NCBI GenBank assembly: GCA_031285345.1
Contig: JAITWI010000008.1
Span: 36,111-100,110, forward strand
DNA length: 64,000 nt
Reading direction: 5' to 3'
Source: Alistipes sp.
Lineage (GTDB): Bacteria > Bacteroidota > Bacteroidia > Bacteroidales > Rikenellaceae
Below, one piece after another: positions 19,035-60,820 of the stretch. The notes beneath the pieces are model-generated. The model searched no databases, had not been told where the DNA came from, and was given only the letters and a program-made list of their open reading frames with translations. The stretch's first letter is position 1. The number at the start of each line of letters is the position of its first letter. Made by a program: the position numbers and the translations under genes.

Positions 19035-20918
19035 ATGAAAAAACAGATATTCACAGCCGGCCTCGCGCTTGCCGCGTTAGGCTTCGCGGGGTGCCAAAAC
19101 GAACCCGCCAAAGCACCCGACACCGAGCCCCGCGCCATTCCCGTGACCATCTCGGCCTCGGTAACCGACGGTGGCGAAACACGCACCATAATCGAGGGCG
19201 ATCGCCAGACGGGCTTCACATCGGCCTGGACCCTGGGCGACAAGATCGGCTTCTACGCCTTCAATCAGGCCGTGCAGTACGACTACCGCACCGTCAACGC
19301 CGAGTTCTCCATCACCTCCATCGAGGACGGCATCGGCACCTTCGACGGCGAGATAATCCACGATGGAGCCGCTCGCACGTTCGACCTCTACGCCTACACC
19401 CCGCGCAAGGCCGACATAAACGTCATGGCCAACCACACCTCGGTCGAGTTTCTGTCGATCGAAACCACCCAGACCATGCGCGAAAACGATATGCACGACG
19501 ACAGCAGCGACCTGATGGTGGCCCTTCCGGGTCAGCAGATTTCGGTGCTCTCCAGCGGCGAGATAATCTCCGACGATTTGGAAGACCTCCAATTCCGCTA
19601 CGTGGTGGGCTTCATGAATCTGACCGTCGGCGACATCACCGCAGATGGAGTTTCGGCAGACGAAGAGGTGGTGAGCGTCAAGATCACCGGCCGCGACGCC
19701 GAGACCGCCCCCGCCCTTGCCGCCAACTTCAACCTCGACCTCACCAACGGCGACATGAAATCCATGTTCGGCAAGTCCGACAATGTGACCGTGTGGCTGC
19801 CCGAAGGCGTCACGTTGGGTGAGCTGAGCGCCTGGGCCTGCGTGATTCCGTTCGAGGCCGACGAGTTGGATTTCGTGGTCACCACCGCCGCCAACGTCAT
19901 CCGCCGCACAGCCACCACGGAACAGTTCGGCGGCAAGTTCTCCATCGCCGCGGGCAACGTCAAAACGTTCGAGCTCAACGTCGACGAAAACTGCACCGTC
20001 GAGGCCAACAAACCGGTCGAGTTCAACTCCGCGAACTACGGCGTCATCCAAAACGGCCTCTACGGCCAGGGGCTGCAAAACGTGTCGCTCACCTTCCGCG
20101 ACTACGATCCGCAGGCCGCCGTGCGCGAGGGCTTCCAGCTGACGATGGAGCTCATAGCCGCGATGGACACCGATCCGTCGAACGAATACCTCGATCTTCC
20201 CGAAGGCACCTACCACTTCAACGAATCCCGCGCCGGTATGTCCATCTCCATCGACCCGCAGTACACCAACGTGATGCCGTTCGTGGCCGACCGTCCCATG
20301 GGGTCGCAGGCCATTTCTGGCGGCACGATGGTGGTGGAAGGCGACCATACGGACTACACGATCACCTTCGACATCGACTACACGGGCGGTAAACTCAAAG
20401 CCGAGTACAACGGTGCGATCTACATCGAAAACCCGGGGTACATTCCTCCCGCGCAGTCGATAGATCTGGGCGAGTTGACAGGAGTGTTGAGCCTGACTCA
20501 CAAACCCAACATCTGGGGGGCGCCCTACAATGTTGACGGCTGGGAATTGGCGTTCGGTAATGCCGGCACCTTCTTGGAGTACGGCAACTACAAGGGCTCG
20601 GGTTGGGTGCTCCAGCTCTTCCTCCATGCTCCGATGGTGGCCGAGGGACAGCCCCTGCCCGACGGCGAGTACCAGATTAAGCAGTCGTACGATCCTTTCA
20701 CAGGCCTGCCCGGCGCGTGGGGCCGCACCGACAACGCCTGGATCATTCACTACAAATTCAGCTCCATCGACAACGAACTCCCCATCACCGAGGGCTTCAT
20801 CACCTCGAAGTTCGAGGACGGACTCTACAACATGACCGTCAACCTGAAAACCATAAACGGCGACATCGTCACCGGTACCGTCAAGGCCGACCCGACCGTC
20901 ACACCGATGCCGCTGTAA
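19035..20918 (+). CDS. fimbrillin-family-like lipoprotein with the same C-terminal module as the preceding gene
   Basis: The lipobox is LGFAGCQ. The N-terminal pattern ETRTIIEG...WTLGDKIGFYAF resembles Mfa-like fimbrillin family proteins. The C-terminal segments GGTMVVEGDHTDYTITFDIDY and PLPDGEYQIK align with gene 17663-19021. Confidence 0.75.
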   Translation: MKKQIFTAGLALAALGFAGCQNEPAKAPDTEPRAIPVTISASVTDGGETRTIIEGDRQTGFTSAWTLGDKIGFYAFNQAVQYDYRTVNAEFSITSIEDGIGTFDGEIIHDGAARTFDLYAYTPRKADINVMANHTSVEFLSIETTQTMRENDMHDDSSDLMVALPGQQISVLSSGEIISDDLEDLQFRYVVGFMNLTVGDITADGVSADEEVVSVKITGRDAETAPALAANFNLDLTNGDMKSMFGKSDNVTVWLPEGVTLGELSAWACVIPFEADELDFVVTTAANVIRRTATTEQFGGKFSIAAGNVKTFELNVDENCTVEANKPVEFNSANYGVIQNGLYGQGLQNVSLTFRDYDPQAAVREGFQLTMELIAAMDTDPSNEYLDLPEGTYHFNESRAGMSISIDPQYTNVMPFVADRPMGSQAISGGTMVVEGDHTDYTITFDIDYTGGKLKAEYNGAIYIENPGYIPPAQSIDLGELTGVLSLTHKPNIWGAPYNVDGWELAFGNAGTFLEYGNYKGSGWVLQLFLHAPMVAEGQPLPDGEYQIKQSYDPFTGLPGAWGRTDNAWIIHYKFSSIDNELPITEGFITSKFEDGLYNMTVNLKTINGDIVTGTVKADPTVTPMPL

Positions 20919-49434: not shown

Positions 49435-50377
49435 CCGCGCCGAACGCCGATATTATGAGGTTGTCGCCGCGCTTGAAACGGTCGCGGAACTCCCACAAAA
49501 CCAACGGAATGGAGGTGCCGGCCGTGTTGCCAAGGTGCTCTATGTTGACAAGTATTTTGTCGTCCGACAGACCCATCCGGTGGCCGGTGGCCGACAGAAT
49601 GCGCAGGTTGGCCTGGTGGGGGATCAGATAGGCGATGTCGTCGGGCTTTAGGCCGTGCCTTGCCATCATCGCCACCGACACGTCGGCCATGTTGCTGACC
49701 GCGTATTTGAACACCGTTTTGCCGTCCTGAATGATGTAGTGCTCGCGGCGGGCCACCGTCTCGGCCGAGGCGGGGTACATGCTGCCGCCAGCCTTCTGGT
49801 ATAGATAGTGGCGACCGATGCCGTCCACGTGGTTTTCGTAGTCCACAAGGCCCTCGTCCGGAGAGTCTGTCGGCTCGATGAGCATAGCCACCGCCGCGTC
49901 GCCGAACAGCGGACAGGTGTTGCGGTCGGTGTAGTCGGTGATGCCGCTCATCCTCTCGCCGCACACCAACACCACCTTTTTAGCCCGGCCGGCGCGAACC
50001 AAGGCGTCGACGGTGGAGAATGAGTAGATGAAGCCGCAGCAGCCGGCGTTGACGTCGAATCCCCAGGCGTTTTTGATGCCCACCTTGTCGGAGATTATGT
50101 TGGCCGTGGCGGGGAACTGCATGTCGGGCGTGACGGTGGCGCACACCAACATGTCCACCTCCTCGGGTTTGGTGCCCGTGGCGGCCAAGAGTTTACGAAC
50201 CGCGTCGGCTCCCATTTCGGAGGTGCCCAAACCGTCCTGCTTGAGGATGCGGCGCTCGACTATGCCGGTGCGCTCGCGGATCCACTCGTCCGACGTGTCG
50301 ACCAACTTTTCTATCTCGGCGTTGGTGAGGATGTACTCCGGAAGCGACGCCTCTATACCTTTTATTACTGCTCTCAT
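49394..50377 (-). CDS. fabH: 3-oxoacyl-ACP synthase III
   Basis: The active-site Cys context is NAGCCGFIYS. Motifs HQANLRI and GNTAGTSIP are present. The last codon and the stop codon are contributed by the repeat-element junction. Confidence 0.94.
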   Translation of the reverse strand: MRAVIKGIEASLPEYILTNAEIEKLVDTSDEWIRERTGIVERRILKQDGLGTSEMGADAVRKLLAATGTKPEEVDMLVCATVTPDMQFPATANIISDKVGIKNAWGFDVNAGCCGFIYSFSTVDALVRAGRAKKVVLVCGERMSGITDYTDRNTCPLFGDAAVAMLIEPTDSPDEGLVDYENHVDGIGRHYLYQKAGGSMYPASAETVARREHYIIQDGKTVFKYAVSNMADVSVAMMARHGLKPDDIAYLIPHQANLRILSATGHRMGLSDDKILVNIEHLGNTAGTSIPLVLWEFRDRFKRGDNLIISAFGAGFTWGAMYYKWGL

Positions 50378-50565
50378 GGTTGCGCGTTTTAATATGTGTG
50401 CCGCAAATTTATCGAATATGTTCGGCCTCGCCTCGCCGCGGGGTGTGATTTAACGATAAGATAACATTAGAGGAGGGTGCGCGGATGGGCGTGGAGGGGC
50501 CGTCGGAGGGCGAAATGACTGCTATCGACCACTGTATATTAATTATCGACAAAATAGTGGATTGT

Positions 50566-50597
50566 TTTGATGTTTCATCGTTTTTTACATATCTTTG
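50566..50597 (+). promoter_or_regulatory. candidate Bacteroidota sigma-A-type promoter (TTTG, 20-nt spacer, TAtcTTTG) for the 50.7-60.8 kb surface locus
   Basis: TTTG lies at 50566-50569 and TAtcTTTG at 50590-50597. The first gene's ATG is at 50663. The region is AT-rich and intergenic. Confidence 0.45.
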
Positions 50598-50662
50598 CCC
50601 CAAACTGAAGACTTGAACGAACAACTTAAATAGAACAATTAACAAGTAAAAATCAAACGATT

Positions 50663-51448
50663 ATGAAACACCGGACACTATTTGCGCTGCCCGCTGTTCT
50701 CGCGGGAATCCTCCTGTCGGGATGCGCGGCCGACGGCGAAACGCGCGGTGGCAGCGGAACCATCGACCTGCAGCTGACCGCCTCGTCGGAGGCTGTCGTC
50801 GTCGAGGCCACAAGGGGAACAATCCCCGGAATCACGGCGCCCGAGGAGAGTCAGTTCAGCCTGGTCATCGTGAAGGACGGAGCCAATCCCGCCACGAGCC
50901 CCCGCTGGGACGACATCACCCAGTATCCCACAGACAACAAGCTTCAGGTGGGCGGCTACACCGCCACAGCGGCGTACGGCGACCCCGACTCCGAAGGGTT
51001 CGAGAGACCTGCTTTCGGCGTGTCGGAGCATTTCGAGGTGCTGCACGGCCAGACCGTGACGGTGGCTCTGGAGGCGCGCCTGGTCAACACCGCCGTGACG
51101 ATGGAGTACACCGACGACTTTAAGAACTACTTCTCGGACTACACGGTGACTGTGGTCAACGAAGGTGCGGATGCCAAAACGTTCGTCAAAGACGAGACCC
51201 GCGCGATGTTCGTGCGTCCCGAGGCCTTCTCGCTGAGGCTGGACTACACCCGTCAGAGCAGCGGCCGCAGCGGAACCGTGTCGTACGACATGGCGGACCT
51301 TATCGAGGGCGAAGTGGCGGCCTGCACACACTATAAAGTGGGCCTCGACATCAACGAAGGCCACGTGGGCGGTGCGGCGATCGTGATCAACCTCGACGGC
51401 AACATCGAGGAGATTCCGCTCGAAATCGAAGTGGGCGAAGGTGAATAA
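50663..51448 (+). CDS. DUF4493-like lipoprotein
   Basis: The lipobox is LLSGCA. The GSGTIDLQL strand is followed by EATRG. Size and pattern fit the Bacteroidales DUF4493 family, assigned from memory. Confidence 0.72.
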   Translation: MKHRTLFALPAVLAGILLSGCAADGETRGGSGTIDLQLTASSEAVVVEATRGTIPGITAPEESQFSLVIVKDGANPATSPRWDDITQYPTDNKLQVGGYTATAAYGDPDSEGFERPAFGVSEHFEVLHGQTVTVALEARLVNTAVTMEYTDDFKNYFSDYTVTVVNEGADAKTFVKDETRAMFVRPEAFSLRLDYTRQSSGRSGTVSYDMADLIEGEVAACTHYKVGLDINEGHVGGAAIVINLDGNIEEIPLEIEVGEGE

Positions 51449-51468
51449 CATTAAAAATCGACAGAGAG

Positions 51469-53214
51469 ATGAAAAGAACGATATATAAACTGTTTGCGTT
51501 GTGCGGCGTGGCTTTGGCGGCGTTCGCATGCGTGGAGGCCGAAGTGCCCGCCGGAGAGACGCAACAAGAGGGCGAGGGTGTGCTCCGCCTGTCGGGTGTG
51601 AGCGTGGTGGAGGATGTGACCGAAAGGCCGTCGCTCTCGACCCGCGCCGTGTCGCCCGACGATTTCGACGTGACCATCACCCGCACGAGAACGGGCGAGG
51701 TGCAGACTTTCAAATACGGTGAGATGCCGGCCGAGTTGACCCTCAAGGCGGGCGACTATGAGCTCTACATCGAGTCGCACGAGATGCCCGACGTTCCCCA
51801 GTGGGACGCGGTGCACTACTCGACCAGGCGCACCTTCACCATCGCGAAGGATATGACCACCAACCTGACCGACGTGGTGTGTAAGGTGACCAGCATTTTG
51901 GTGTCGGTGCGCTACACCGACGAGATGGTGAAGGCGCTGACCGAAGGCGAGGATGGCGAACGGGTGAGGGTGACCATCGGCGGCGTATATCGCGAGTACG
52001 ACCGCGACGAACACCGCGTGGGCGTGTTCAAGGCTCCGGTGGAGGAGAACCTGCTCAAGTGGGAGTTCCACGGCAGTCTGGGCGAGGGAATGGATATGCA
52101 GCAGGTGGCGCAGGCGGGATCTATCCCCGCCGTGAAGGCCGGGCAGCACCGTACCCTGACGTTCGACATATTGGTGGACGAGATGGGTAAGGTGGTGTTC
52201 CCGCTGACCGTCTCGGTGGAGTGCGAAACCGTGGACGTGAACGTGAACGTCGATCTGGACGAAGAGGTGATAGTGCCGTTCCTGCCGGTGGAGGTCGTAG
52301 CGAGCGAGGGATGGACGCTGACCGCGCCCGACGAACCCGCGATACCAAATGTGATATATCTGGGAGCGAACAGCTCCAATGTTCCCGAAGATATTACGAT
52401 GACGCTGAACGCCAAGAACGGTATAGAGGAGGCGACTCTGAAAATAGTGTCGCTGGATGGAGAGACGCCGTTCGCCGGATTGAGCCTGCTTTACAACGAC
52501 AGGTACGGCAATCTTTCGGCAGGATTGAATCTGCTTGTGGATCCGGTCGCCTCGGGCGCTGCGTATATCAACAACTCGCTGGGTATAAAGACCGGCGGCG
52601 ATATAGTGGGGCAGACGGAATATGTGCTGGATATGACCAAATTGATACGATTTATCCACTACAACCTTACGACTAACAGCGCTCCCGCGAGCACCAGACT
52701 CATAGTTACTTTGAGTGGCGCCGACGACCAGGGCAACTCGATGACGCGTGTGCTTACGTTCGAACTACGCAAGGGCGACAAACCCGTCGTGGAGTCGATC
52801 TTGACGGCGACAGGTAGCGGTATCGGCGAAAGGATGGAGATTCTCGGATCCAACCCGGCGGCGAATCCCGTGAAGGTTGATATCGTAGCCTCGGCGGGTA
52901 TCAAAGGGTTTGAGATCGACATGGAGTCGTCGAACACCCAATTCGACGGCGCGTTGGCGCTGATGCGTCCGCTGAACCTGCTGGATGAGAGCAAGTACGA
53001 GGATATCGCGACGCTCGGGCTGCCCTACGGCGACGGGGTGAGGAACCAGACCGAGCTCGTATTCGACATCACCGGATTTATGAGCCTTATCACGCTGTTT
53101 CTGGATATGGAGCCGGGCGACATGACTGCCGACTTCCACCTGAAGGTTACCGACAACACCGACAAGGTGCTCGAAGCGACCATCGGGCTGCAAATCATAG
53201 ACGACAGAGACTAA
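51469..53214 (+). CDS. large lipoprotein with a DUF4493-like N-terminal domain and extra Ig-like C-terminal domains
   Basis: The lipobox is AAFAC. The GEGVLRLSG strand is followed by STRAVSPDDFDVTI, then AGDYELYIES, paralleling the neighbouring DUF4493-like genes. Confidence 0.72.
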   Translation: MKRTIYKLFALCGVALAAFACVEAEVPAGETQQEGEGVLRLSGVSVVEDVTERPSLSTRAVSPDDFDVTITRTRTGEVQTFKYGEMPAELTLKAGDYELYIESHEMPDVPQWDAVHYSTRRTFTIAKDMTTNLTDVVCKVTSILVSVRYTDEMVKALTEGEDGERVRVTIGGVYREYDRDEHRVGVFKAPVEENLLKWEFHGSLGEGMDMQQVAQAGSIPAVKAGQHRTLTFDILVDEMGKVVFPLTVSVECETVDVNVNVDLDEEVIVPFLPVEVVASEGWTLTAPDEPAIPNVIYLGANSSNVPEDITMTLNAKNGIEEATLKIVSLDGETPFAGLSLLYNDRYGNLSAGLNLLVDPVASGAAYINNSLGIKTGGDIVGQTEYVLDMTKLIRFIHYNLTTNSAPASTRLIVTLSGADDQGNSMTRVLTFELRKGDKPVVESILTATGSGIGERMEILGSNPAANPVKVDIVASAGIKGFEIDMESSNTQFDGALALMRPLNLLDESKYEDIATLGLPYGDGVRNQTELVFDITGFMSLITLFLDMEPGDMTADFHLKVTDNTDKVLEATIGLQIIDDRD

Positions 53215-53237
53215 CCGACTAACAACCGAAAAAAGCA

Positions 53238-55382
53238 ATGAAAAAGATATTATCATACATCTGTACGCTTGCGGCGACGGGTCTGTTGGTTGCAGGTTGC
53301 GCCACCGATCCGGCAAGCGAGGCTGCAAAAGGCAGCGGACGATTGGTGTTCGACATAGAGTTCGATGGCCAAATAGCCACCCGGGTCGATATTCCGGAGA
53401 ACGTGTCGATCAAGATCGGCATCCCCGAGGTGGGATATACCCATATCTACGAATCGCTGGACGACGTGCCCGAAGAGATGTGGCTGTCGAGCGGCGACTA
53501 CTTCATCGAAGTTGTGGCGGGTGATCCCACCGTGCCCGGATTCGAACAGAACATCAACCTTGCGGGCGGCGCCGACTTCACCATCACGGACGGTGAGGTG
53601 ACCCCCGTGGTGGTGAACTGCACGGTGGCCACGACCTTAGTTTCGATCAGTTTCGACGAGAGCGTGCCCGAATGGCTGACCGACTACTCGGTGACCATGT
53701 TCCCCGTGCCCGACGACGCGGCGACGACCCTTGTGTTCGATGCGACCAACGGCGGCCAGACCGCCTACTTCGACCTTGCACCCGAGCAGACCACCATGGC
53801 GTGGAAGTTCGAGGCCAACCACACCAACGAGGCCGAAGAGGAAGAGGTGTTGGTGGAGGGTGAGATGGTGGGGCTGAAGCGTGGCGCCAAATATTCGGCT
53901 ACGTTCAAATATACCTACTCCGAGAAGGAGGGCGGCCTTGCGCTGGTCGTGACGGTGGACGAGAGCACCGAAGATATCGGCACCGACATCATCATCCTGC
54001 AGAAGCCCGCCATCGAGGGTCACGACTTTGACGAACCGATAACTCCCGGCGAGAACCAAACCCTGCGCTTTACGGGCGCACAGTCCATCACGAGCATCGA
54101 CTTCTCGGGCTCGGTGTTCGGTGCCGGAGTGGAACTGCTCACAACCTTGGCCGAAGAGTTGGCCGAGTATGGAATCGAGGTCGCACCGATCGAAAAGGGC
54201 TACGAGGTTACGCTGTCGATGACCTTCTTCGAAAAGGTGGCTCTGTATGTGCCTGAGGTGCCCGCTCCCGGGACCCGCGCCGGCGGTGCCGTCGGCGAAC
54301 CGGTCGTAATCACGGCCACAGACCAGAGCGACAGGGTTACAGAGGTGAGCCTTGTGATGGGCGGCGCGGCGTTCGTAGTGGAACCTCCCGCGATCCACCT
54401 GTGGCCGACCAGCGCACGTTTGGCCGGTATCAACCTGACGGGCGAAGGAACGATTATGTTTGCATACCGACCCGAAGGCGCCGCCGAATGGACATTCGTT
54501 GACGGAGTGCTCACGGAAGGAATGCGCTACGAGGCTTCGGTGACGGGTCTTACCCCCGGCGCGAGATACGAACTCGACATCGAGCACGACGGCGCACTGT
54601 CGGGTGCGGTGAGGATATTCGCTTCGGCTACGCCTTACCCTTTATATAACGGAGGTTTCGAAAATTGGAACCAGAACGGAGGAGTGTGGTACGCCAACGC
54701 CGCCGGAACCAACTTCTGGGACAGCGGCAACAAGGGTACCGTGACTGCTCCGGTTGTGGGTAGCCCCAACAACAACATCACCACCGGAGTTAGCGAACCC
54801 CGTCCCGGTTCCGCGGGCATCAAGTCGGCGAAACTCGATTCGAATTGGTTCGGAGTGGCGGGTATGGGCGCTTTCGCCGCAGGTAACCTCTACACCGGAG
54901 AGTTCCTCGAAGCGAGGGCCAACCTGTCGAACCCGAGCGGACGGGTGAGCTTCGGCCGTCCCTTCACGGGGCGTCCCACCGCGATGAACGTCTGGTATAA
55001 GGGCTCGACCGGAAAGGTGGACTACGCCAAGGGCGGCGCTCCGCTCTCTGTCGGGCAGCAGGATGAGTATATCATTTTGGTGGCGCTGGTGGACGGCAAC
55101 TTCCCCCGCGTGGTGGATACAGCCGACTGGAACACCATATTCGACTGGGAAAACGACCAGGACGTGATCGCTTTCGGCCAGATGTACGGTTCGGATGCCG
55201 TCGACTGGACTTCCGCGTCCATCCCGCTGGTCTACCGCTCGCTCGACCGCGTGCCGACCCACATCGTGGTGCTGGCCTGCGCGAGCCGATATGGCGACTA
55301 CTTCACCGGCAGCACGTCGAGCGTGTTGTATGTGGACGACTTCGAACTGGTGTACGACGACAACGTGGTCGTGGCCGAGTAG
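53238..55382 (+). CDS. lipoprotein: DUF4493-like N-terminus, FN3-like domain, C-terminal PCMD (putative carbohydrate metabolism) domain
   Basis: The lipobox is LVAGC. GSGRLVFDIE is followed by ATRV. The FN3-like segment is AYRPEGAAEWTF...GLTPGARYEL. The PCMD-like segment reads YPLYNGGFENWN...FWDSGNKG...AAGNLYTGEF...GRPFTGRPTAMNVWYKG. Confidence 0.75.
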   Translation: MKKILSYICTLAATGLLVAGCATDPASEAAKGSGRLVFDIEFDGQIATRVDIPENVSIKIGIPEVGYTHIYESLDDVPEEMWLSSGDYFIEVVAGDPTVPGFEQNINLAGGADFTITDGEVTPVVVNCTVATTLVSISFDESVPEWLTDYSVTMFPVPDDAATTLVFDATNGGQTAYFDLAPEQTTMAWKFEANHTNEAEEEEVLVEGEMVGLKRGAKYSATFKYTYSEKEGGLALVVTVDESTEDIGTDIIILQKPAIEGHDFDEPITPGENQTLRFTGAQSITSIDFSGSVFGAGVELLTTLAEELAEYGIEVAPIEKGYEVTLSMTFFEKVALYVPEVPAPGTRAGGAVGEPVVITATDQSDRVTEVSLVMGGAAFVVEPPAIHLWPTSARLAGINLTGEGTIMFAYRPEGAAEWTFVDGVLTEGMRYEASVTGLTPGARYELDIEHDGALSGAVRIFASATPYPLYNGGFENWNQNGGVWYANAAGTNFWDSGNKGTVTAPVVGSPNNNITTGVSEPRPGSAGIKSAKLDSNWFGVAGMGAFAAGNLYTGEFLEARANLSNPSGRVSFGRPFTGRPTAMNVWYKGSTGKVDYAKGGAPLSVGQQDEYIILVALVDGNFPRVVDTADWNTIFDWENDQDVIAFGQMYGSDAVDWTSASIPLVYRSLDRVPTHIVVLACASRYGDYFTGSTSSVLYVDDFELVYDDNVVVAE

Positions 55383-55494
55383 ATACTTCGTCGGGGTGCC
55401 GTGCGGTGGGGCGTTTGTGCGCTGCCATGCGGCACTCCGATATAAAAAACCCAAACTGGCGCTGGTTTGCAGCGCGTTGTAGAAAGCAAAACAA

Positions 55495-56493
55495 ATGGTT
55501 GGTAAAATAGTAGCGGTGTTGGCGGCCGCCCTCGTAACGGGGGCGGCTAAGGCACAAATCATGGCGCAGGAGGTTTCGGAGGCGACTTCGAGAGCAACTC
55601 TTGCACAAACAGAGGTCGGAGCCGGGCTGAACGCCGGGGCTTCGGCGCAGGAAGGGACAGCGTCGGTTGGCGGCGATGGTGGCGGAATGTACGCCGACGC
55701 GCAGAAGGAGGGCACAATGTACGCCGACGCGCAGGCCAGGGCGATGGAGGGGATGGTGGCTCCGGGAATGAAGGAGCAGACGCGCCGCGAGAGGTTCGAC
55801 CGCGGGCTGGCGTTCGACACCAAAACGCCGTTCATGCCCAAGGGGCTGTGGGTGGCGGGAGTCAACGTGTCCTATTCGCAGCAGCAGAGTGCCGATTACA
55901 GGCTGCTTATTATCAGGGATATGGACATGGAGGGCAACACGTTCAACATCTCGCCCACGGTGCAGTATATGTTCGCCAACAACCAGTCGATCGGGGCGAG
56001 ATTCACGTACAGTCGCCACCTTATAGACATTCAAAACATGGAGTTTTCGTTCACCGACGAGTTGAACAGCATGATGTTCCCCGACGGCGTGCTGCACTAT
56101 AAGTATGAGGATCAGAGCTATATGGGCTACATAACCTATCGCTACTATGTGGGTTTCGGGGCCAGCAAAAGGCTGATCATGTTCAACGAGGTGCAGGCGG
56201 GTTTCGGTGGCGGACAGCAGAGGGAACTCAGCGGATGGAACGACGACAAGACGGGTTACAGGTTCGGAACGTACCAAAATTCGTTCAGCTTTAGGCTCGG
56301 GCTCGCTCCGGGTATGACATTTTTCGTGACCAACGTGTTCGCCGTGGAGGTGCAGATGGGGCTGTTGGGCTACGAATTCAAGCGGCAAACCCAGACCGGC
56401 ACCAATCTGGAGCTCTCGACCCGCAAGTCGAGCAACATCTCGTCGAGGTTCGACTTTTTGTCGATAGCTTTCGGGACGACGTTTTATCTCTAA
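55495..56493 (+). CDS. small outer-membrane beta-barrel protein
   Basis: It has an SPI-type signal peptide ending AAKAQ and an N-terminal low-complexity region containing a 30-bp tandem repeat (MYADAQ x2). About 230 aa of alternating strands follow, ending FGTTFYL. Confidence 0.65.
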   Translation: MVGKIVAVLAAALVTGAAKAQIMAQEVSEATSRATLAQTEVGAGLNAGASAQEGTASVGGDGGGMYADAQKEGTMYADAQARAMEGMVAPGMKEQTRRERFDRGLAFDTKTPFMPKGLWVAGVNVSYSQQQSADYRLLIIRDMDMEGNTFNISPTVQYMFANNQSIGARFTYSRHLIDIQNMEFSFTDELNSMMFPDGVLHYKYEDQSYMGYITYRYYVGFGASKRLIMFNEVQAGFGGGQQRELSGWNDDKTGYRFGTYQNSFSFRLGLAPGMTFFVTNVFAVEVQMGLLGYEFKRQTQTGTNLELSTRKSSNISSRFDFLSIAFGTTFYL

Positions 56494-56505
56494 TACTTTG
56501 CGGCG

Positions 56506-58332
56506 ATGAGGGTCGGGAAACATATATGGGTGGCTTTGATGGCTGGTCGGATCGTGATGGCGGCAGTCTCGGCGATTGCGCTTGTCGGATGCGGCATGGG
56601 GTCGGAGACGCCGGCGCCGGGTGTGGCGGGCGAGATAGTGGCGATGGAGTTCGAGGGGGCTGTCGGCGAGGCGACGATAAACGGCGCGCGGCGAACGGTG
56701 GAGGTGGTGTTAGGCGAGGCGGTGGATTTGCGCGAGGTGAAGATCGCGGCCATAGAGGTGACCGAGGGCGGGGTGTGCGGCCTTGCGGCGGGAGACGTGT
56801 TGGATCTGACGCAGCCGCTGACGGTGACGGTCAAAACCACGTCGGCGTATGAGTGGACAGTCTCGGCGGTGCAGGATGTGGAGTATCGCTTCGGGGTGGA
56901 GGGGCAGATAGGCGAGACGCTCTTCGAGATGCACACCCGCAGCGTGTTCGCATTCGTGCCCGGGGGGACCGACCTGACGGCGGTGACGATACTCGATCTG
57001 AAACTCGCTCCGGAGGGTGTGCAGGCAATATATAACCCGTCGCTCGAATCGCTCATGTCTGAGCCGCAGCCGTTCATCACCACCGAGCAGGGCGGCGAGG
57101 CGGTGTGCGAGATAGAGGTGAGTTACCGCGACGTGACTGAAAAATGGTATCTGCACGTCACGCAGAGCAATGTGATGGTGGAGCGGGTGAACCCGTTCGC
57201 GCGTAAGGCGTATCTGTCGGCCTTCGGGTCTGAGGATCAGGTTCACGGATTCGAATATCGCTCCGCCGCGGGATTCGATCCTGCGGCCGCCGAAGAGGAT
57301 CAGGGTTGGATACGCATTGCGGGCGAACAGATAACGGAGGGCGAGAACGGAGCATTCTCGGCAACCCTGACCGACCTTAGTCCCGACACCGAATACTTTG
57401 TGAGGGCCTTCTCAGGCGAGGACAGATGCGAGTATCGCGAATTCATGACCGTGGAGGAGCGGGAGTTGCCCGGCGCGAGCTTCGAAGAGTGGAGCTGGGG
57501 GGTGGATGACAAAAAATCGGAAGACGGGTCGCTCAAAAACGTCGAGGCGTGGGCTCCTTGGGCCGAGGGTGCGCAGTGGGAGGTGAATCGCTGGTGGGAC
57601 ACGGGTAACAGGGGTGTGGCGTTCGTGGACAGAGACGGCGGCGGCAACTCGCTGCGCGACGAAAACGGATACAGAGGCAACGGCGCCGTGTTGGAGACGC
57701 GCTGGGCGGTGGTCAAAGTGGCGGGCGGAAACATATACTTCGGCGAGTTCGGCGAGATGTACGGCATGAACGCCACCTGCCGGTTGGGGCACAACTGGAC
57801 GACCAAACCCACCGGATTGAAAGGCTTCTACAAATATTTTCCGCAGCCAGTTAACCGCGTGAGCGAAGAGCACCGCAAGCTGCACCCATACAGATTCTCG
57901 ACCGAAAAGTGGATGAACTCGCCCGACTCGCTGCACGTGTGCGTGGCGCTGTGGGCGTCGCCCGACGGACGGGATATTCCGTTCCAGGTGAACACGGTTA
58001 CGGATAACGGAGGGGCCGAATTCGTGGACTTCTCGCGCGATGCGGACGGCGTGATAGCCTACGGTGCCTTTGTGAGCCCCGACGAGCAGGCCGCGTGGAG
58101 CGAGTTCAACATCGAGATGGACTACCTCGACCAGAGCGAAATGTCGCGCACGACCGTTAACTACCTGAAGCGCAACAACTACTTCTCGACCGGAGTGCTA
58201 CCGCCCAACACACAGCTATATCTGCTGATCACGGCGAGCAAAAACTGCAACTACTTTATAGCCGGGACGGGTGGTGGAGGCACGGCCGGAAGCACCATGC
58301 ATGTGGACGAGTTGGAGATGATATACGAGTAG
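56506..58332 (+). CDS. PCMD-domain lipoprotein with N-terminal Ig-like and FN3-like domains
   Basis: The lipobox is ALVGCG. The FN3-like segment is FEYRSAAGF...LTDLSPDTEYFVRAF. The PCMD-like segment reads LPGASFEEWS...WWDTGNRG...AGGNIYFGEF...TTKPTGLKGFYKYFP. Confidence 0.75.
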   Translation: MRVGKHIWVALMAGRIVMAAVSAIALVGCGMGSETPAPGVAGEIVAMEFEGAVGEATINGARRTVEVVLGEAVDLREVKIAAIEVTEGGVCGLAAGDVLDLTQPLTVTVKTTSAYEWTVSAVQDVEYRFGVEGQIGETLFEMHTRSVFAFVPGGTDLTAVTILDLKLAPEGVQAIYNPSLESLMSEPQPFITTEQGGEAVCEIEVSYRDVTEKWYLHVTQSNVMVERVNPFARKAYLSAFGSEDQVHGFEYRSAAGFDPAAAEEDQGWIRIAGEQITEGENGAFSATLTDLSPDTEYFVRAFSGEDRCEYREFMTVEERELPGASFEEWSWGVDDKKSEDGSLKNVEAWAPWAEGAQWEVNRWWDTGNRGVAFVDRDGGGNSLRDENGYRGNGAVLETRWAVVKVAGGNIYFGEFGEMYGMNATCRLGHNWTTKPTGLKGFYKYFPQPVNRVSEEHRKLHPYRFSTEKWMNSPDSLHVCVALWASPDGRDIPFQVNTVTDNGGAEFVDFSRDADGVIAYGAFVSPDEQAAWSEFNIEMDYLDQSEMSRTTVNYLKRNNYFSTGVLPPNTQLYLLITASKNCNYFIAGTGGGGTAGSTMHVDELEMIYE

Positions 58333-58351
58333 TTACAAATTACTATCACGA

Positions 58352-59158
58352 ATGAAAAGAGTTGTTTTATATACTGTTTTAGGGTTTATTCTGGCCGGAT
58401 GTGCGCGCGAAGCCGATATGACGCGCGTGGCGGAGGACGAAGGTTACGGCACGCTCGACCTGGGCGGAGTAACTTTTTCGGCTGCCGAAGAGGTTGCAGG
58501 TCTGACGCGGGCTGCTGAGGCTTCGGGGACGCGGGAAGCCGCTCCGGGCATGACTCGGGCGGTGGACGCGTCGGATTTCGAGGTGAAGATATGGCGGCAA
58601 AGGCGCGAGGGCGAGGAACTTGTGGAGGGTTTGCCGGCGACGGTGGCGGGATTTGCCGCGCCTGTGACGCTTCCGGTGGCCGACTATCGCATCGAGGTGC
58701 GTTCGGCAGGCGAGGCTCAGGCGGCGGCTTTCGACGCCCCGTGGTATGTGGGCGAGGTCGAGTTTTCGATCTTGCGCGACCAGACCGTCAGCCCCGAGGT
58801 GGTGTGCCGACAGGCGAACGGCAGAGTGACGGTGCGTTACGGATTTAGTCTGATTGAAGAATTTTGGAATCCGGCTGCGGTGTCGACCTCCGTCACGATG
58901 GGCGAAAACTCGCTGGAGTTTCCTTTCGGCGAATTGCGCGGCGGATATCTGTGGGTGACCGAGCCGACCGAGGTGAACGTTGTCTTTACGGGCGAGGTGA
59001 GCGGCAATTTCACACAAATAGACCAAACTGTGACAGTCTCGCCCGGCGGCTGGACGAGGGTGCGGTTGGTGTTGGAGAACGACGAGTCGTTTCCGATAAT
59101 AGTGGTCGACAACGACGAAAACGGGGCGGGGCAGATAGGCGATGGCGAGTCGTGGTAG
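58352..59158 (+). CDS. DUF4493-like lipoprotein
   Basis: The lipobox is ILAGCA. GYGTLDLGG is followed by LTRAAEASGTREAAPGMTRAVDASDFEVKI and then ADYRIEVRS. Confidence 0.72.
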   Translation: MKRVVLYTVLGFILAGCAREADMTRVAEDEGYGTLDLGGVTFSAAEEVAGLTRAAEASGTREAAPGMTRAVDASDFEVKIWRQRREGEELVEGLPATVAGFAAPVTLPVADYRIEVRSAGEAQAAAFDAPWYVGEVEFSILRDQTVSPEVVCRQANGRVTVRYGFSLIEEFWNPAAVSTSVTMGENSLEFPFGELRGGYLWVTEPTEVNVVFTGEVSGNFTQIDQTVTVSPGGWTRVRLVLENDESFPIIVVDNDENGAGQIGDGESW

Positions 59159-59178
59159 TAATTAAGAGAGATTTTGAG

Positions 59179-60750
59179 ATGAAAAACATAGCAATTCGGT
59201 TCGCCTTCGGGGCTTTGGCGATTTCGTCGGGATGGATTTTGTCGGGATGTGCCGAAAACGGCGGATTCGACGATGTGGTACCCGGAGGGGGAGATGAGCG
59301 GCGCTTTGGAGTGACGGTCGGTGGGGAGACGGTCGACAAGCCCGATGTCGAAAACGCGACGGGCACGCGCGCGGAATCTTGGGATTCGAGTGGCGGCGAT
59401 ATGGCTGGCGGCACGCGTGCGGAGTACGACCCGGGCGCAGCGGGAGCGGAGTATTTGTGGTCGCCGGGCGACGAGGTGGGATTGTTTATGGTGCCGACGG
59501 GTGGCAGCGAGCCCGTGGTGGCCAATTCGCCCCTCAGGAGCCTGAACACCGTGCCGCAGCGGTACGCCGAGTTCGACGGAGAGTTGACGGGCGAGGAGAT
59601 CGGGCGGATAGATCCCGCGGTGAAATATGACTACTATTCGTATTATCCCTATTCTGCGGCGGCTTCGGCGACTTTCGAGGCGGGCGCACCGAAGGTGACG
59701 TTCGCGATGCCGGCGGCGATAGACGTTGCGCCCGGTGTGTTCCCGGTCGAATATGGATTTATGTACGCTACGCCCGAGTTGACGCCTGCCGGTGAGAGGC
59801 CGCTGACGTGGTTGGAGAACGGACAGCAGCGTTTCGGCGAGAAGGTGGGCTTCGGCTACAATCACGCCTTCGCGTGGTTGGAGGTGTCGCTGGCGCTCAA
59901 CCTTATGTCGCAGCCGGTGACGCAGATAGTGGTGACGTGCGCCGACGGGGCGATGTCGGGGGTGGCTAACGTGAATTTACGGAACGGGGCTATGGAGTTT
60001 GCCGCCGGATCGTCGAACTCGCTGACGGTCAATATCGAAGGCGGGATGGATATTCGTAGCGCGACCGACTACGACTCCATTTGGATTCCGATAAATCCGG
60101 CGCTGGCGAATCGCAACTTTACTTTCGAGTTTAGGTCGGCGGCGGGGGCTTCGTCGGTTTTGACGCGTCAGGGCGGCGCTTTGCAGGCAGGGATGAAGCA
60201 CAAGGCGGCGATGAAGGTGCCGTTTAGGGTCAATTTCGCAGGAATAGTCGGCAGGAACGACACTTACGGAGGGGACAACATAACCCATTGGGGGTATAGT
60301 TTTTGGAAATCGGGGGTCAATACCGCTCCGAATATGAAAGGGCTTGTGGGTAACAGCGAAGACTTCAACCCCTTCAAGGTAGACGGAGACTGCCGCGTCA
60401 TTTATTTTGCCCCGGCCGTAGGAATGTTCTCCGGTACCTCCGGAGAACTCGAAGCGCCTGAGTTTAAGTTGGTCAACTCGCTCGGACTGACCGACGTGAG
60501 GGTAAAGGTGACGTTCGCCGCCTCGGGGAATGCTGTGAGCGGGAATGATAGAATTATGAGACACGGATTTACAAAAAGCGGTATAGGCAGCAACCTTACC
60601 GGACAGACTACGCTCGATAGGACAACGGCAAAGGAGTACTCTTTTACCGGCACGCTTAATTCGACCACACCCAATGTCAAGTTTAGGGGGGAGACTTGGG
60701 GGTACTATTTTATATATATGCACGAGATAAGGGTGGAGTACGCCGAGTAG
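59179..60750 (+). CDS. fimbrillin-family (Mfa-like) lipoprotein
   Basis: The lipobox is ILSGCA. GTRAE occurs twice. WSPGDEVGLFMV and NHAFAWLEVSL are typical of the Bacteroidales fimbrillin family. The ATG at 59179 lies within the longer listed ORF. Confidence 0.75.
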   Translation: MKNIAIRFAFGALAISSGWILSGCAENGGFDDVVPGGGDERRFGVTVGGETVDKPDVENATGTRAESWDSSGGDMAGGTRAEYDPGAAGAEYLWSPGDEVGLFMVPTGGSEPVVANSPLRSLNTVPQRYAEFDGELTGEEIGRIDPAVKYDYYSYYPYSAAASATFEAGAPKVTFAMPAAIDVAPGVFPVEYGFMYATPELTPAGERPLTWLENGQQRFGEKVGFGYNHAFAWLEVSLALNLMSQPVTQIVVTCADGAMSGVANVNLRNGAMEFAAGSSNSLTVNIEGGMDIRSATDYDSIWIPINPALANRNFTFEFRSAAGASSVLTRQGGALQAGMKHKAAMKVPFRVNFAGIVGRNDTYGGDNITHWGYSFWKSGVNTAPNMKGLVGNSEDFNPFKVDGDCRVIYFAPAVGMFSGTSGELEAPEFKLVNSLGLTDVRVKVTFAASGNAVSGNDRIMRHGFTKSGIGSNLTGQTTLDRTTAKEYSFTGTLNSTTPNVKFRGETWGYYFIYMHEIRVEYAE

Positions 60751-60784
60751 TTTCGCGACCGATTGTTAAACCGCAACAGTTTTT

Positions 60785-60820
60785 GCCGCCTTACCCGTTC
60801 GTGGTGAGGCGGCTTTTTTT
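60785..60820 (+). terminator. Rho-independent terminator closing the surface locus
   Basis: An 11-bp stem pairs gccgccttacc with ggtgaggcggc around the loop cgttcgt, followed by T7. Confidence 0.75.

Follow-up and report, generated by a model that had tools for sequence, protein, structure and literature searches.

A locus of seven genes on the + strand of a 64,000-nucleotide (nt) stretch of Alistipes sp. DNA (assembly GCA_031285345.1, contig JAITWI010000008.1; the whole stretch is termed the window, and positions are numbered within it) is, as judged from gene order and predicted folds, a lineage-specific elaboration of a conserved Bacteroidales cassette, one in which small outer-membrane beta-barrels and PCMD-domain lipoproteins are combined with lipoproteins that form a new, fold-level branch of the type V pilin-like kind. 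The reading favoured here, to which we give an even chance, is that the seven products (g1 to g7, in gene order) would constitute a self-contained, barrel-anchored surface lipoprotein complex made of pilin-fold subunits with glycan-binding-like heads. What was computed comprises gene structure, family membership, predicted folds, a sequence motif, an export signal and gene order, each of which is considered below. A preliminary description made from the letters of the sequence had reported promoter-like boxes, seven co-directional genes with intervening gaps of 12–23 nt and one of 112 nt, and a terminator, all of which are present in the sequence; as an account of what is there it is confirmed and accurate, while its interpretation, a polymeric or multi-subunit pilus-like surface structure, is partly supported.

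Families and domains of the seven products

Pfam searches at cut-offs of 27 bits for DUF4493 (PF14900), 28 bits for PCMD (PF13201) and 27 bits for Mfa_like_1 recognised four DUF4493 proteins, each by its N-terminal part (g1, 128.5 bits; g2, 108.7 bits; g3, 107.3 bits; g6, 87.0 bits), two PCMD proteins, each by its C-terminal part (g3, 141.3 bits; g5, 96.4 bits), and a single borderline Mfa_like_1 protein (g7, 28 bits), assignments that agree with those made by eye in the preliminary description. The FN3 domains which it had paired with PCMD fared less well, since only the PCMD half of the pairing passed the threshold, FN3 being represented by sub-threshold Pfam matches (E 0.01–0.07). None of the NCBIfam models matched any of the seven products. 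Throughout the 1.72-Mb genome assembly, every DUF4493 and PCMD gene sits in this locus. The g7 match is the weakest above-cut-off Mfa_like_1 match of the whole genome, and an orthologue at the related locus L007, 36% identical to g7, scored 33 bits. The C-terminal domain of g7 was considered as a further PCMD domain on account of the similarity, by eye, of its last strand, and was rejected in that the PCMD profile fails to recognise it.

A lipobox Cys, previously read in six products, was found in all but g4 (positions in Table 1) and in 147 of 148 DUF4493 representatives; g4 has an N-terminal hydrophobic leader with no lipobox Cys, which was read by eye as a signal peptide. As had also been stated in the preliminary description, the seven products include no usher, ATPase, SusC or SusD family member detectable with Pfam, and the same scan found no match to the Mfa2 family among them.

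Conservation of the cassette across Bacteroidales

The barrel gene and the PCMD lipoprotein gene that follows it (g4 and g5 in the window) form the invariant core of the cassette: the pair was found in nine of nine distinct related loci from Rikenellaceae, most of them termite-gut Alistipes-like, and in eight of eight genomes from other families. The gene order first reported from the window alone proved to be conserved in other Bacteroidales, being recovered from 11 genomes of an order-wide sample of 201. DUF4493 was encoded by 20 of the 201, usually in clusters of three to five genes, strong matches to the barrel were obtained in 11, and in each of these 11 the barrel gene adjoins DUF4493 genes. 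They are exactly the genomes with at least three DUF4493 matches, bar G113, in which five DUF4493 are spread over several contigs and the barrel match is weak.

Eight cassettes from other families were inspected in detail. Five of them, with genes that often overlap, run from a DUF4493 protein of ~840 amino acids (aa) that also carries a divergent PCMD domain, through a DUF4493 protein of ~430 aa and a DUF4493-PCMD protein of ~715 aa, to one or two barrels and a PCMD lipoprotein of ~540 aa. By way of contrast L017, L018 and L019 resemble the window in that a short DUF4493 protein (256–284 aa) opens the cassette, replacing the 840-aa one, and in these the remaining DUF4493 proteins vary somewhat in size or number. 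In all but one of the eight, the gene ahead of the barrel encodes an orthologue of the size of g3 (707–725 aa), the exception being L017 with a counterpart of 623 aa, and phmmer matched the C-terminal region of g2 to the C-terminus of the ~430-aa middle DUF4493 protein of four other cassettes (E 3e-8 to 1e-9 in three, 3.5e-5 in L014). Since the order is conserved across the eight inspected genomes, g1–g5 are the window's version of a widespread cassette consisting of three DUF4493 proteins, one or two barrels and one PCMD lipoprotein, and g6 and g7 are lineage-specific additions. Among the carriers are Coprobacter, Barnesiella propionica, Candidatus Barnesiella excrementigallinarum and Parabacteroides acidifaciens, in which the cassette proteins are annotated as hypothetical or DUF4493. 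The distribution of the cassette takes in cultured genera of the human and animal gut (Barnesiella, Coprobacter, Parabacteroides) and also Alistipes-like bacteria of termite guts; a search of the literature found no study of it.

In the related Rikenellaceae the site lies after fabH, with the RND pump next where the contig extends, L005 and L009 excepted. The genes ahead of the barrel-PCMD pair vary: three DUF4493 genes are found there in L001, one or two genes for Big_2 proteins in L005, L011 and L012, and genes for proteins of no recognised family (322–326 aa) in L003 and L009. Such variation of lipoproteins at a fixed chromosomal site suggests cassette swapping. At L007 the order is barrel, PCMD, DUF4493 and fimbrillin, the counterpart of g4–g7.

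Complexes of a barrel with surface lipoproteins have been described as a hallmark of Bacteroidota, a case in point being Bt1926, a predicted 8-stranded barrel that putatively anchors Bt1927, an S-layer lipoprotein (PMC12578637), and in every locus examined here the barrel gene adjoins lipoprotein genes with export signals. The locus could alternatively specify a protective, S-layer-like coat, the barrel anchoring large lipoproteins that cover the cell and block phage or host factors and the pilin-like and PCMD domains being structural rather than ligand-binding. The Bt1926/Bt1927 locus and its seven paralogous loci do share with the cassette a small predicted 8-stranded barrel, the proposed anchor, beside a large surface lipoprotein, and likewise appear to specify a surface structure rather than a transporter; the eight B. 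thetaiotaomicron loci of S-layer lipoprotein plus OmpA-like barrel raise phage resistance (bioRxiv 10.1101/521070), and the exchange of lipoproteins 5' of the barrel-PCMD pair among related genomes at the same site would be expected of surface variation under selection. However, the B. thetaiotaomicron loci have invertible promoters and a tyrosine recombinase, whereas neither an invertible promoter nor a recombinase adjoins the present locus; four to six lipoproteins are encoded per cassette as against one, and the likeness to Bt1926/Bt1927 is an analogy of gene arrangement. The architecture of the cassette is moreover strongly conserved across families, unlike that of fast-evolving decoys, and a coat of this kind is considered improbable.

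Predicted fold of the DUF4493 proteins

The DUF4493 profile matches 4820 clusters (50% identity) in a library of 1.84 billion proteins. An AlphaFold model of g1, generated from an alignment of 12 sequences that included all four paralogues, was all-beta with a mean pLDDT of 80.7, and Foldseek comparison with the PDB returned as its top 15 matches only Bacteroidales putative adhesin or fimbrial proteins, each with a probability of 1.00 (TMq 0.35–0.48; E 6.5e-8 to 1.9e-5). The matches included the Mfa2 anchor of P. gingivalis (5nfi, TMq 0.48), BT2657 (4qdg, E 6.5e-8), a DUF1812 protein (3gf8, TMq 0.47) and, also near the top, 3pay, 5cag, 3ufi, 4k4k, 4gpv, 3t2l and 3up6, with 4dgu, 4eps and 3liu as lower matches of the same kind; other than 5nfi, we take them to be members of the FimA superfamily. 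DUF4493 is accordingly predicted to adopt the two-domain (transthyretin-like beta-sandwich) type V pilin fold, TM-scores below 0.5 probably reflecting a differing angle between the two domains. The preliminary description had allowed for predictions that would contain no pilin-like fold; that was not the outcome, the g1 model matching type V pilins.

The members of the family differ in how they end. Short DUF4493 proteins terminate in a conserved amphipathic beta-strand of alternating hydrophobic residues, in a placement like that of a donor strand, and long ones run on into further domains after the pilin-like body.

A basic motif at the position of pilin cleavage, and a surface-export signal

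In g1 a GxGxIxLxL strand at residues 30–40 is followed by T50-R51, and an alignment of 12 DUF4493 domains, those of the four paralogues among them, shows no variation at the lipid Cys, G32, T50, R51, Y99 and F124. Motif statistics were compiled from the top 148 DUF4493 representatives, the loop being defined as the segment between the N-terminal strand and the conserved P-x-x-x-[DE]-F. The strand, G-x-[ILV]-x-[LIV]-x-[LV], is conserved among these representatives, and [TS]R[AST] occurs in 93 of 147, being 22-fold denser in the loop than elsewhere in the protein, figures which, with the invariance of T50 and R51, uphold the shared strand plus T-R-[A/V/G] motif noticed in the preliminary description. 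Many representatives, and also several other cassettes, have Lys in place of this Arg.

The distance from Cys21 to Arg51 of g1 is 30 residues, that in Mfa1 being 29. Mfa1, with its Cys at residue 20, is cleaved at Arg49, and FimA at Arg46, within the loop that follows the anchor strand (PMC13655056); the T-R site of DUF4493 is thus a putative cleavage site, placed where FimA and Mfa1 are cut. TRAE is present twice in g7 (residues 63–66 and 79–82), a duplication that had been noticed previously, and the second copy is conserved in the L007 orthologue (as STRAE) and is the point at which the Pfam fimbrillin model exactly begins.

Following the lipid Cys, the DUF4493 family favours S/A/T at +2, K/D/E at +3, D/E at +4 (73%) and D/N/E at +5. 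This pattern matches K-(D/E)2, the surface-export signal of Bacteroidota lipoproteins (PMC5080379), and the lipoproteins of the locus are on this evidence predicted to lie at the cell surface.

How far the locus resembles a type V pilus

Given a predicted pilin fold, a lipobox and an Arg conserved at the spacing typical of type V pilins, an alternative is that the locus specifies a true polymeric type V pilus, in which g1 and g6 would form the stalk by protease-mediated strand exchange, g2, g3 and g7 would serve as tips with lectin-like modules, and the barrel would be only an accessory. The type V pili of P. gingivalis and gut Bacteroidales (FimA-E, Mfa1-5) are also built from lipoprotein precursors with a two-beta-sandwich body, predicted here for DUF4493, and with an N-terminal strand followed by a loop bearing a conserved Arg/Lys some 30 residues after the Cys, and their operons, too, encode several paralogous subunits. 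The terminal strand of the short DUF4493 proteins would suit a stalk subunit, and the large DUF4493 subunits, having no free C-terminal strand, are consistent with tip pilins, which do not possess donor strands (PMC13655056). A true fimbrillin, g7, belongs by Pfam to Mfa_like_1 and lies in the same putative operon, and the genome is rich in canonical genes for type V pili (above cut-off, Mfa_like_1 is matched 12 times and Mfa2 at least seven times), so that a pilin-maturing activity is plausibly present. Canonical type V pilus clusters with FimA-like, Mfa_like_1 and Mfa2 genes were noted at G000:C10:108554-112051, C59:25592-31795 and C17:36960-39722, the first of them ~8 kb past the end of the window.

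Against this, DUF4493 has no detectable sequence relation to Mfa_like_1, Mfa2 or P_gingi_FimA; the locus has no anchor of the Mfa2/FimB type, the Mfa2 genes lying elsewhere in the genome; all four DUF4493 paralogues retain T-R, so that every one keeps the basic site, unlike an anchor; and most cassettes show no evident stalk subunit, five of the eight from other families having proteins of ~840, 430 and 715 aa with no short DUF4493 among them. Of the proposed stalk and tip products, g6 and g7 are missing from most cassettes. The obligatory partners in the cassette are one or two integral outer-membrane barrels and a non-pilin PCMD lipoprotein, and fim and mfa operons show nothing comparable to this fixed association with a barrel. 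Polymerisation of the cassette proteins by strand exchange is possible.

The barrel-anchored complex is rated above a true pilus because five of the eight cassettes have no short subunit, no paralogue is anchor-like, no Mfa2 gene lies in the locus and the proteins fall into a fixed set of size classes, which suggests a defined complex rather than a long polymer; the true pilus is, in our estimation, unlikely. Of the pilus-like structure proposed in the preliminary description there stand the pilin fold, the Arg at the canonical distance, the surface-export signal and the conserved gene order, while its polymeric nature is weakened by the want of an obvious stalk subunit with a free donor strand in those five cassettes, by the lack of an anchor pilin and by a core that consists of a barrel and a non-pilin PCMD protein.

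The barrel and its PCMD partner

An AlphaFold model of g4 (pLDDT 75.6) contained long antiparallel strands across residues 119–331, in keeping with the small mid-locus beta-barrel of the preliminary description. Because Foldseek matched this model to OmpA, OmpW, Pla/OmpT and Ail, with the best TM-scores to 8- and 10-stranded barrels, g4 is predicted to be a small outer-membrane beta-barrel. It matched no Pfam family, and its 71 homologues are mostly unnamed or termed 'opacity protein-like'. Conservation within the family is highest at the mature N-terminus, R-x-R-[FY]-D-R-G-L-A-F-D-T-K-T-P-x-M-P-K-G, which g4 carries as RxRFDRGLAFDTKTP just ahead of the barrel. A low-complexity insert of ~75 aa, rich in A, G, E, Q and T and disordered in the model, lies between the N-terminal leader of g4 and the FDRGL motif (residues about 22–96; window about 55558–55782) and contains 'MYADAQ' twice; inserts of this type are absent from most homologues, shorter in a few (e.g. 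P0017) and of similar length in the L001 copy only.

A g5-family profile was constructed from ten g5-type proteins. Its C-terminal part matched the PCMD structures 3hbz, 4het, 4jrl and 3s30 (E 1e-25 to 1e-29), to which the PCMD part of g3 is also matched, while its positions 19–206, which begin at the lipid Cys, matched residues 19–203 of a 'DUF4960' chain (E 4e-9) in PDB entries 8a9y (chain T), 8aa0 and 8aa2. With the aid of the utilisome preprint this chain is taken to be Bt1761, the levan-binding protein of the B. thetaiotaomicron utilisome, the N-terminal domain of which forms a rigid unit with SusC and the C-terminal domain of which binds glycan (utilisome preprint). At the level of sequence, therefore, the N-terminus of the g5 family resembles the barrel-docking end of a surface glycan-binding protein. 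The likeness to the SusCD utilisome concerns those ~190 N-terminal residues, which match the barrel-fixed N-terminal domains of Bt1761; the barrel of the cassette, by way of contrast, is small and OmpA/OmpW-like rather than a 22-stranded TonB-dependent SusC, SusD and glycosidase are lacking, and the C-terminal head of g5 is a PCMD domain rather than the levan-binding domain of Bt1761. The JCSG structures 3hbz, 4het, 4jrl and 3s30 possess the same C-terminal PCMD domain as g5, and one copy of the small N-terminal beta domain was weakly matched; unlike g5, these proteins have ~350 aa, and they are without an assigned function.

A second, smaller PCMD lipoprotein of the size of those crystallised (364–376 aa) adjoins the main cassette in two loci (L014:3582-5479 and L022:4130-5224). 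In L014 its gene is followed by that of an OMP_b-brl_2 barrel, a family different from that of the cassette barrel, from which it appears that the pairing of PCMD proteins with barrels may be general; the barrels beside the smaller PCMD proteins of L014 and L022 are not of the cassette's family.

The combination of a glycan-binding-like lipoprotein with a barrel might also describe a device for nutrient capture and uptake, in effect a miniature utilisome, in which the PCMD lipoproteins would bind substrate and pass it to a channel through the barrel. The Bt1761-like N-terminus of the g5 family would fit such a role, as would the label of putative glycoside hydrolase given to the PCMD structures by their depositors, and OmpW-like barrels can conduct small hydrophobic molecules. 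The Foldseek matches of highest TM-score are, however, 8- and 10-stranded barrels too narrow for oligosaccharides, and in the locus there is neither a TonB-dependent transporter nor SusD, nor any regulator or any enzyme, periplasmic or cytoplasmic; none of these recurs beside the other cassettes either. Uptake is for these reasons the reading to which we attach the least probability, and a very low one.

Proposed assembly and its weaknesses

In the barrel-anchored complex favoured here, the g4 barrel would sit in the outer membrane as an anchor or docking platform for g5, the Bt1761-like N-terminal domains of which would dock upon it. The DUF4493 lipoproteins g1, g2, g3 and g6 would be flipped to the surface by virtue of their export signal, each presenting a type V pilin-like two-domain body which in g3, and in the large paralogues encoded elsewhere, would hold a PCMD jelly-roll head off the membrane, while g7 would contribute a divergent fimbrillin with a C-terminal domain of its own. 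Such a complex would probably adhere to, or capture, a glycan or some other surface ligand. A more tentative extension, which we think possible and yet would not expect, is cleavage of the pilin-fold subunits in the conserved Arg/Lys loop, with strand exchange joining them into a short, defined fibril or tip-like complex. The surface location, the contact between barrel and lipoprotein, the binding of a ligand, the cleavage and the strand exchange are what we infer.

Several results weigh against this account. Both AlphaFold models derive from shallow alignments, of 12 sequences for g1 and 21 for g4, and the TM-scores of the g1 model to pilins are only 0.43–0.48. The relation between DUF4493 and pilins is invisible to every sequence method used: hhalign of DUF4493 against the g7 family gave an alignment confined to the signal peptide, a Pfam scan of 45 diverse DUF4493 members found no pilin family (Mfa_like_1, Mfa2 or P_gingi_FimA), a profile of the 45 members had no match among PDB sequences, and PDB sequence searches with g1 and g7 returned nothing relevant. 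Membership of DUF4493 in a Pfam pilin family was for that reason set aside, g7 alone being a member of one. No paper in the literature searched mentions DUF4493. Within the locus, the export signal of g5 is weak, with one acidic residue, at +6, and a strong hairpin intervenes between g3 and g4. The depositors' label of putative glycoside hydrolase for PCMD is unproven. We know of no role for an 8- to 10-stranded barrel in type V pili.

That last point can be turned about. The cassette could be an unrecognised branch of type V pili, in which cut and strand-exchanged subunits are held by a dedicated beta-barrel and not by a lipidated anchor of the Mfa2 type; this appears improbable to us, and to the same degree improbable is its corollary that the terminating contact would come from the near-invariant mature N-terminus of the barrel (R-x-R-F-D-R-G-L-A-F-D-T-K-T-P) or from the PCMD partner. 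Were it so, this would be the first pilus of its class with an outer-membrane protein component, and it could bear on the handling of surface lipoproteins at the Bacteroidota outer membrane.

The predicted assignment to a type V pilin fold class, together with a processing-site motif in the right place, provides a testable mechanism for DUF4493, a large family which has had neither a sequence-matched PDB structure nor a mention in the literature searched. The strict coupling of pilin-fold lipoproteins to small barrels and to a PCMD lipoprotein that resembles a surface glycan-binding protein is undescribed for type V pili, and the cassette offers a compact model for the building of barrel plus surface-lipoprotein complexes in Bacteroidota, which could reveal a new adhesin or glycan-recognition module.

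Layout of the locus and expression signals

The seven open reading frames occupy 50663–60750, with intergenic gaps in order of 20, 23, 112, 12, 19 and 20 nt (Table 1). Upstream of them a TTTG and TATCTTTG constitute promoter-like boxes, as read from the sequence, TATCTTTG being situated 65 nt 5' of the g1 ATG and representing the single + strand occurrence of TAnnTTTG in front of the locus; over the whole window such boxes number 26, as against 10.9 expected. No inverted repeats were found around the boxes in 50350–50700, hence there is no sign of an invertible promoter, and that candidate was rejected.

The terminator-like hairpin has an 11-bp stem with 8 G-C pairs, a 7-nt loop and a T-run after it. 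The spacer between g3 and g4, the sole long gap in the locus, yielded an RNA fold of -50 kcal/mol (z = -3.8), and its hairpin is followed by an A-run, not a U-run. The hairpin sequence is unique in the genome; it was consequently rejected as a repeat element and, as a single-copy structure, may mark a site of processing or attenuation at the junction of the DUF4493 genes with the barrel gene.

Table 1. Features of the locus, in window coordinates.
Feature	Positions	Strand	Description
Promoter-like boxes, Bacteroidota type	50566–50597	+	TTTG 50566–50569, 20-nt spacer, TATCTTTG 50590–50597; read from sequence
g1	50663–51448	+	261 aa; lipobox Cys21; DUF4493 domain alone
g2	51469–53214	+	581 aa; lipobox Cys21; N-terminal DUF4493 and ~310-aa C-terminal region outside library families
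g3	53238–55382	+	714 aa; lipobox Cys21; DUF4493, FN3-like linker and C-terminal PCMD jelly-roll domain
Spacer with hairpin	55383–55494	+	112 nt; hairpin about 55390–55441
g4	55495–56493	+	332 aa; predicted outer-membrane beta-barrel protein, barrel residues 119–331
g5	56506–58332	+	608 aa; lipobox Cys29; two small N-terminal beta domains, FN3-like and PCMD
g6	58352–59158	+	268 aa; lipobox Cys17; DUF4493 domain alone
g7	59179–60750	+	523 aa; lipobox Cys24; divergent Mfa_like_1 fimbrillin (residues 79–349) and ~170-aa C-terminal domain without a family assignment
Intrinsic terminator-like hairpin	60785–60820	+	hairpin 60785–60813, then TTTTTTT

The locus is flanked by fabH, which is encoded on the opposite strand, and by an RND efflux pump. 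Elsewhere in the window, a sub-threshold Mfa_like_1 match (22.4 bits) at 19218–19628 falls inside a 661-aa open frame unrelated to the locus. In mice, a PCMD-domain protein of Bacteroides caecimuris reportedly acts as a T-cell antigen and induces regulatory T cells (PMC13648455), a report which implies that such PCMD proteins are expressed in the gut and recognised by the host.

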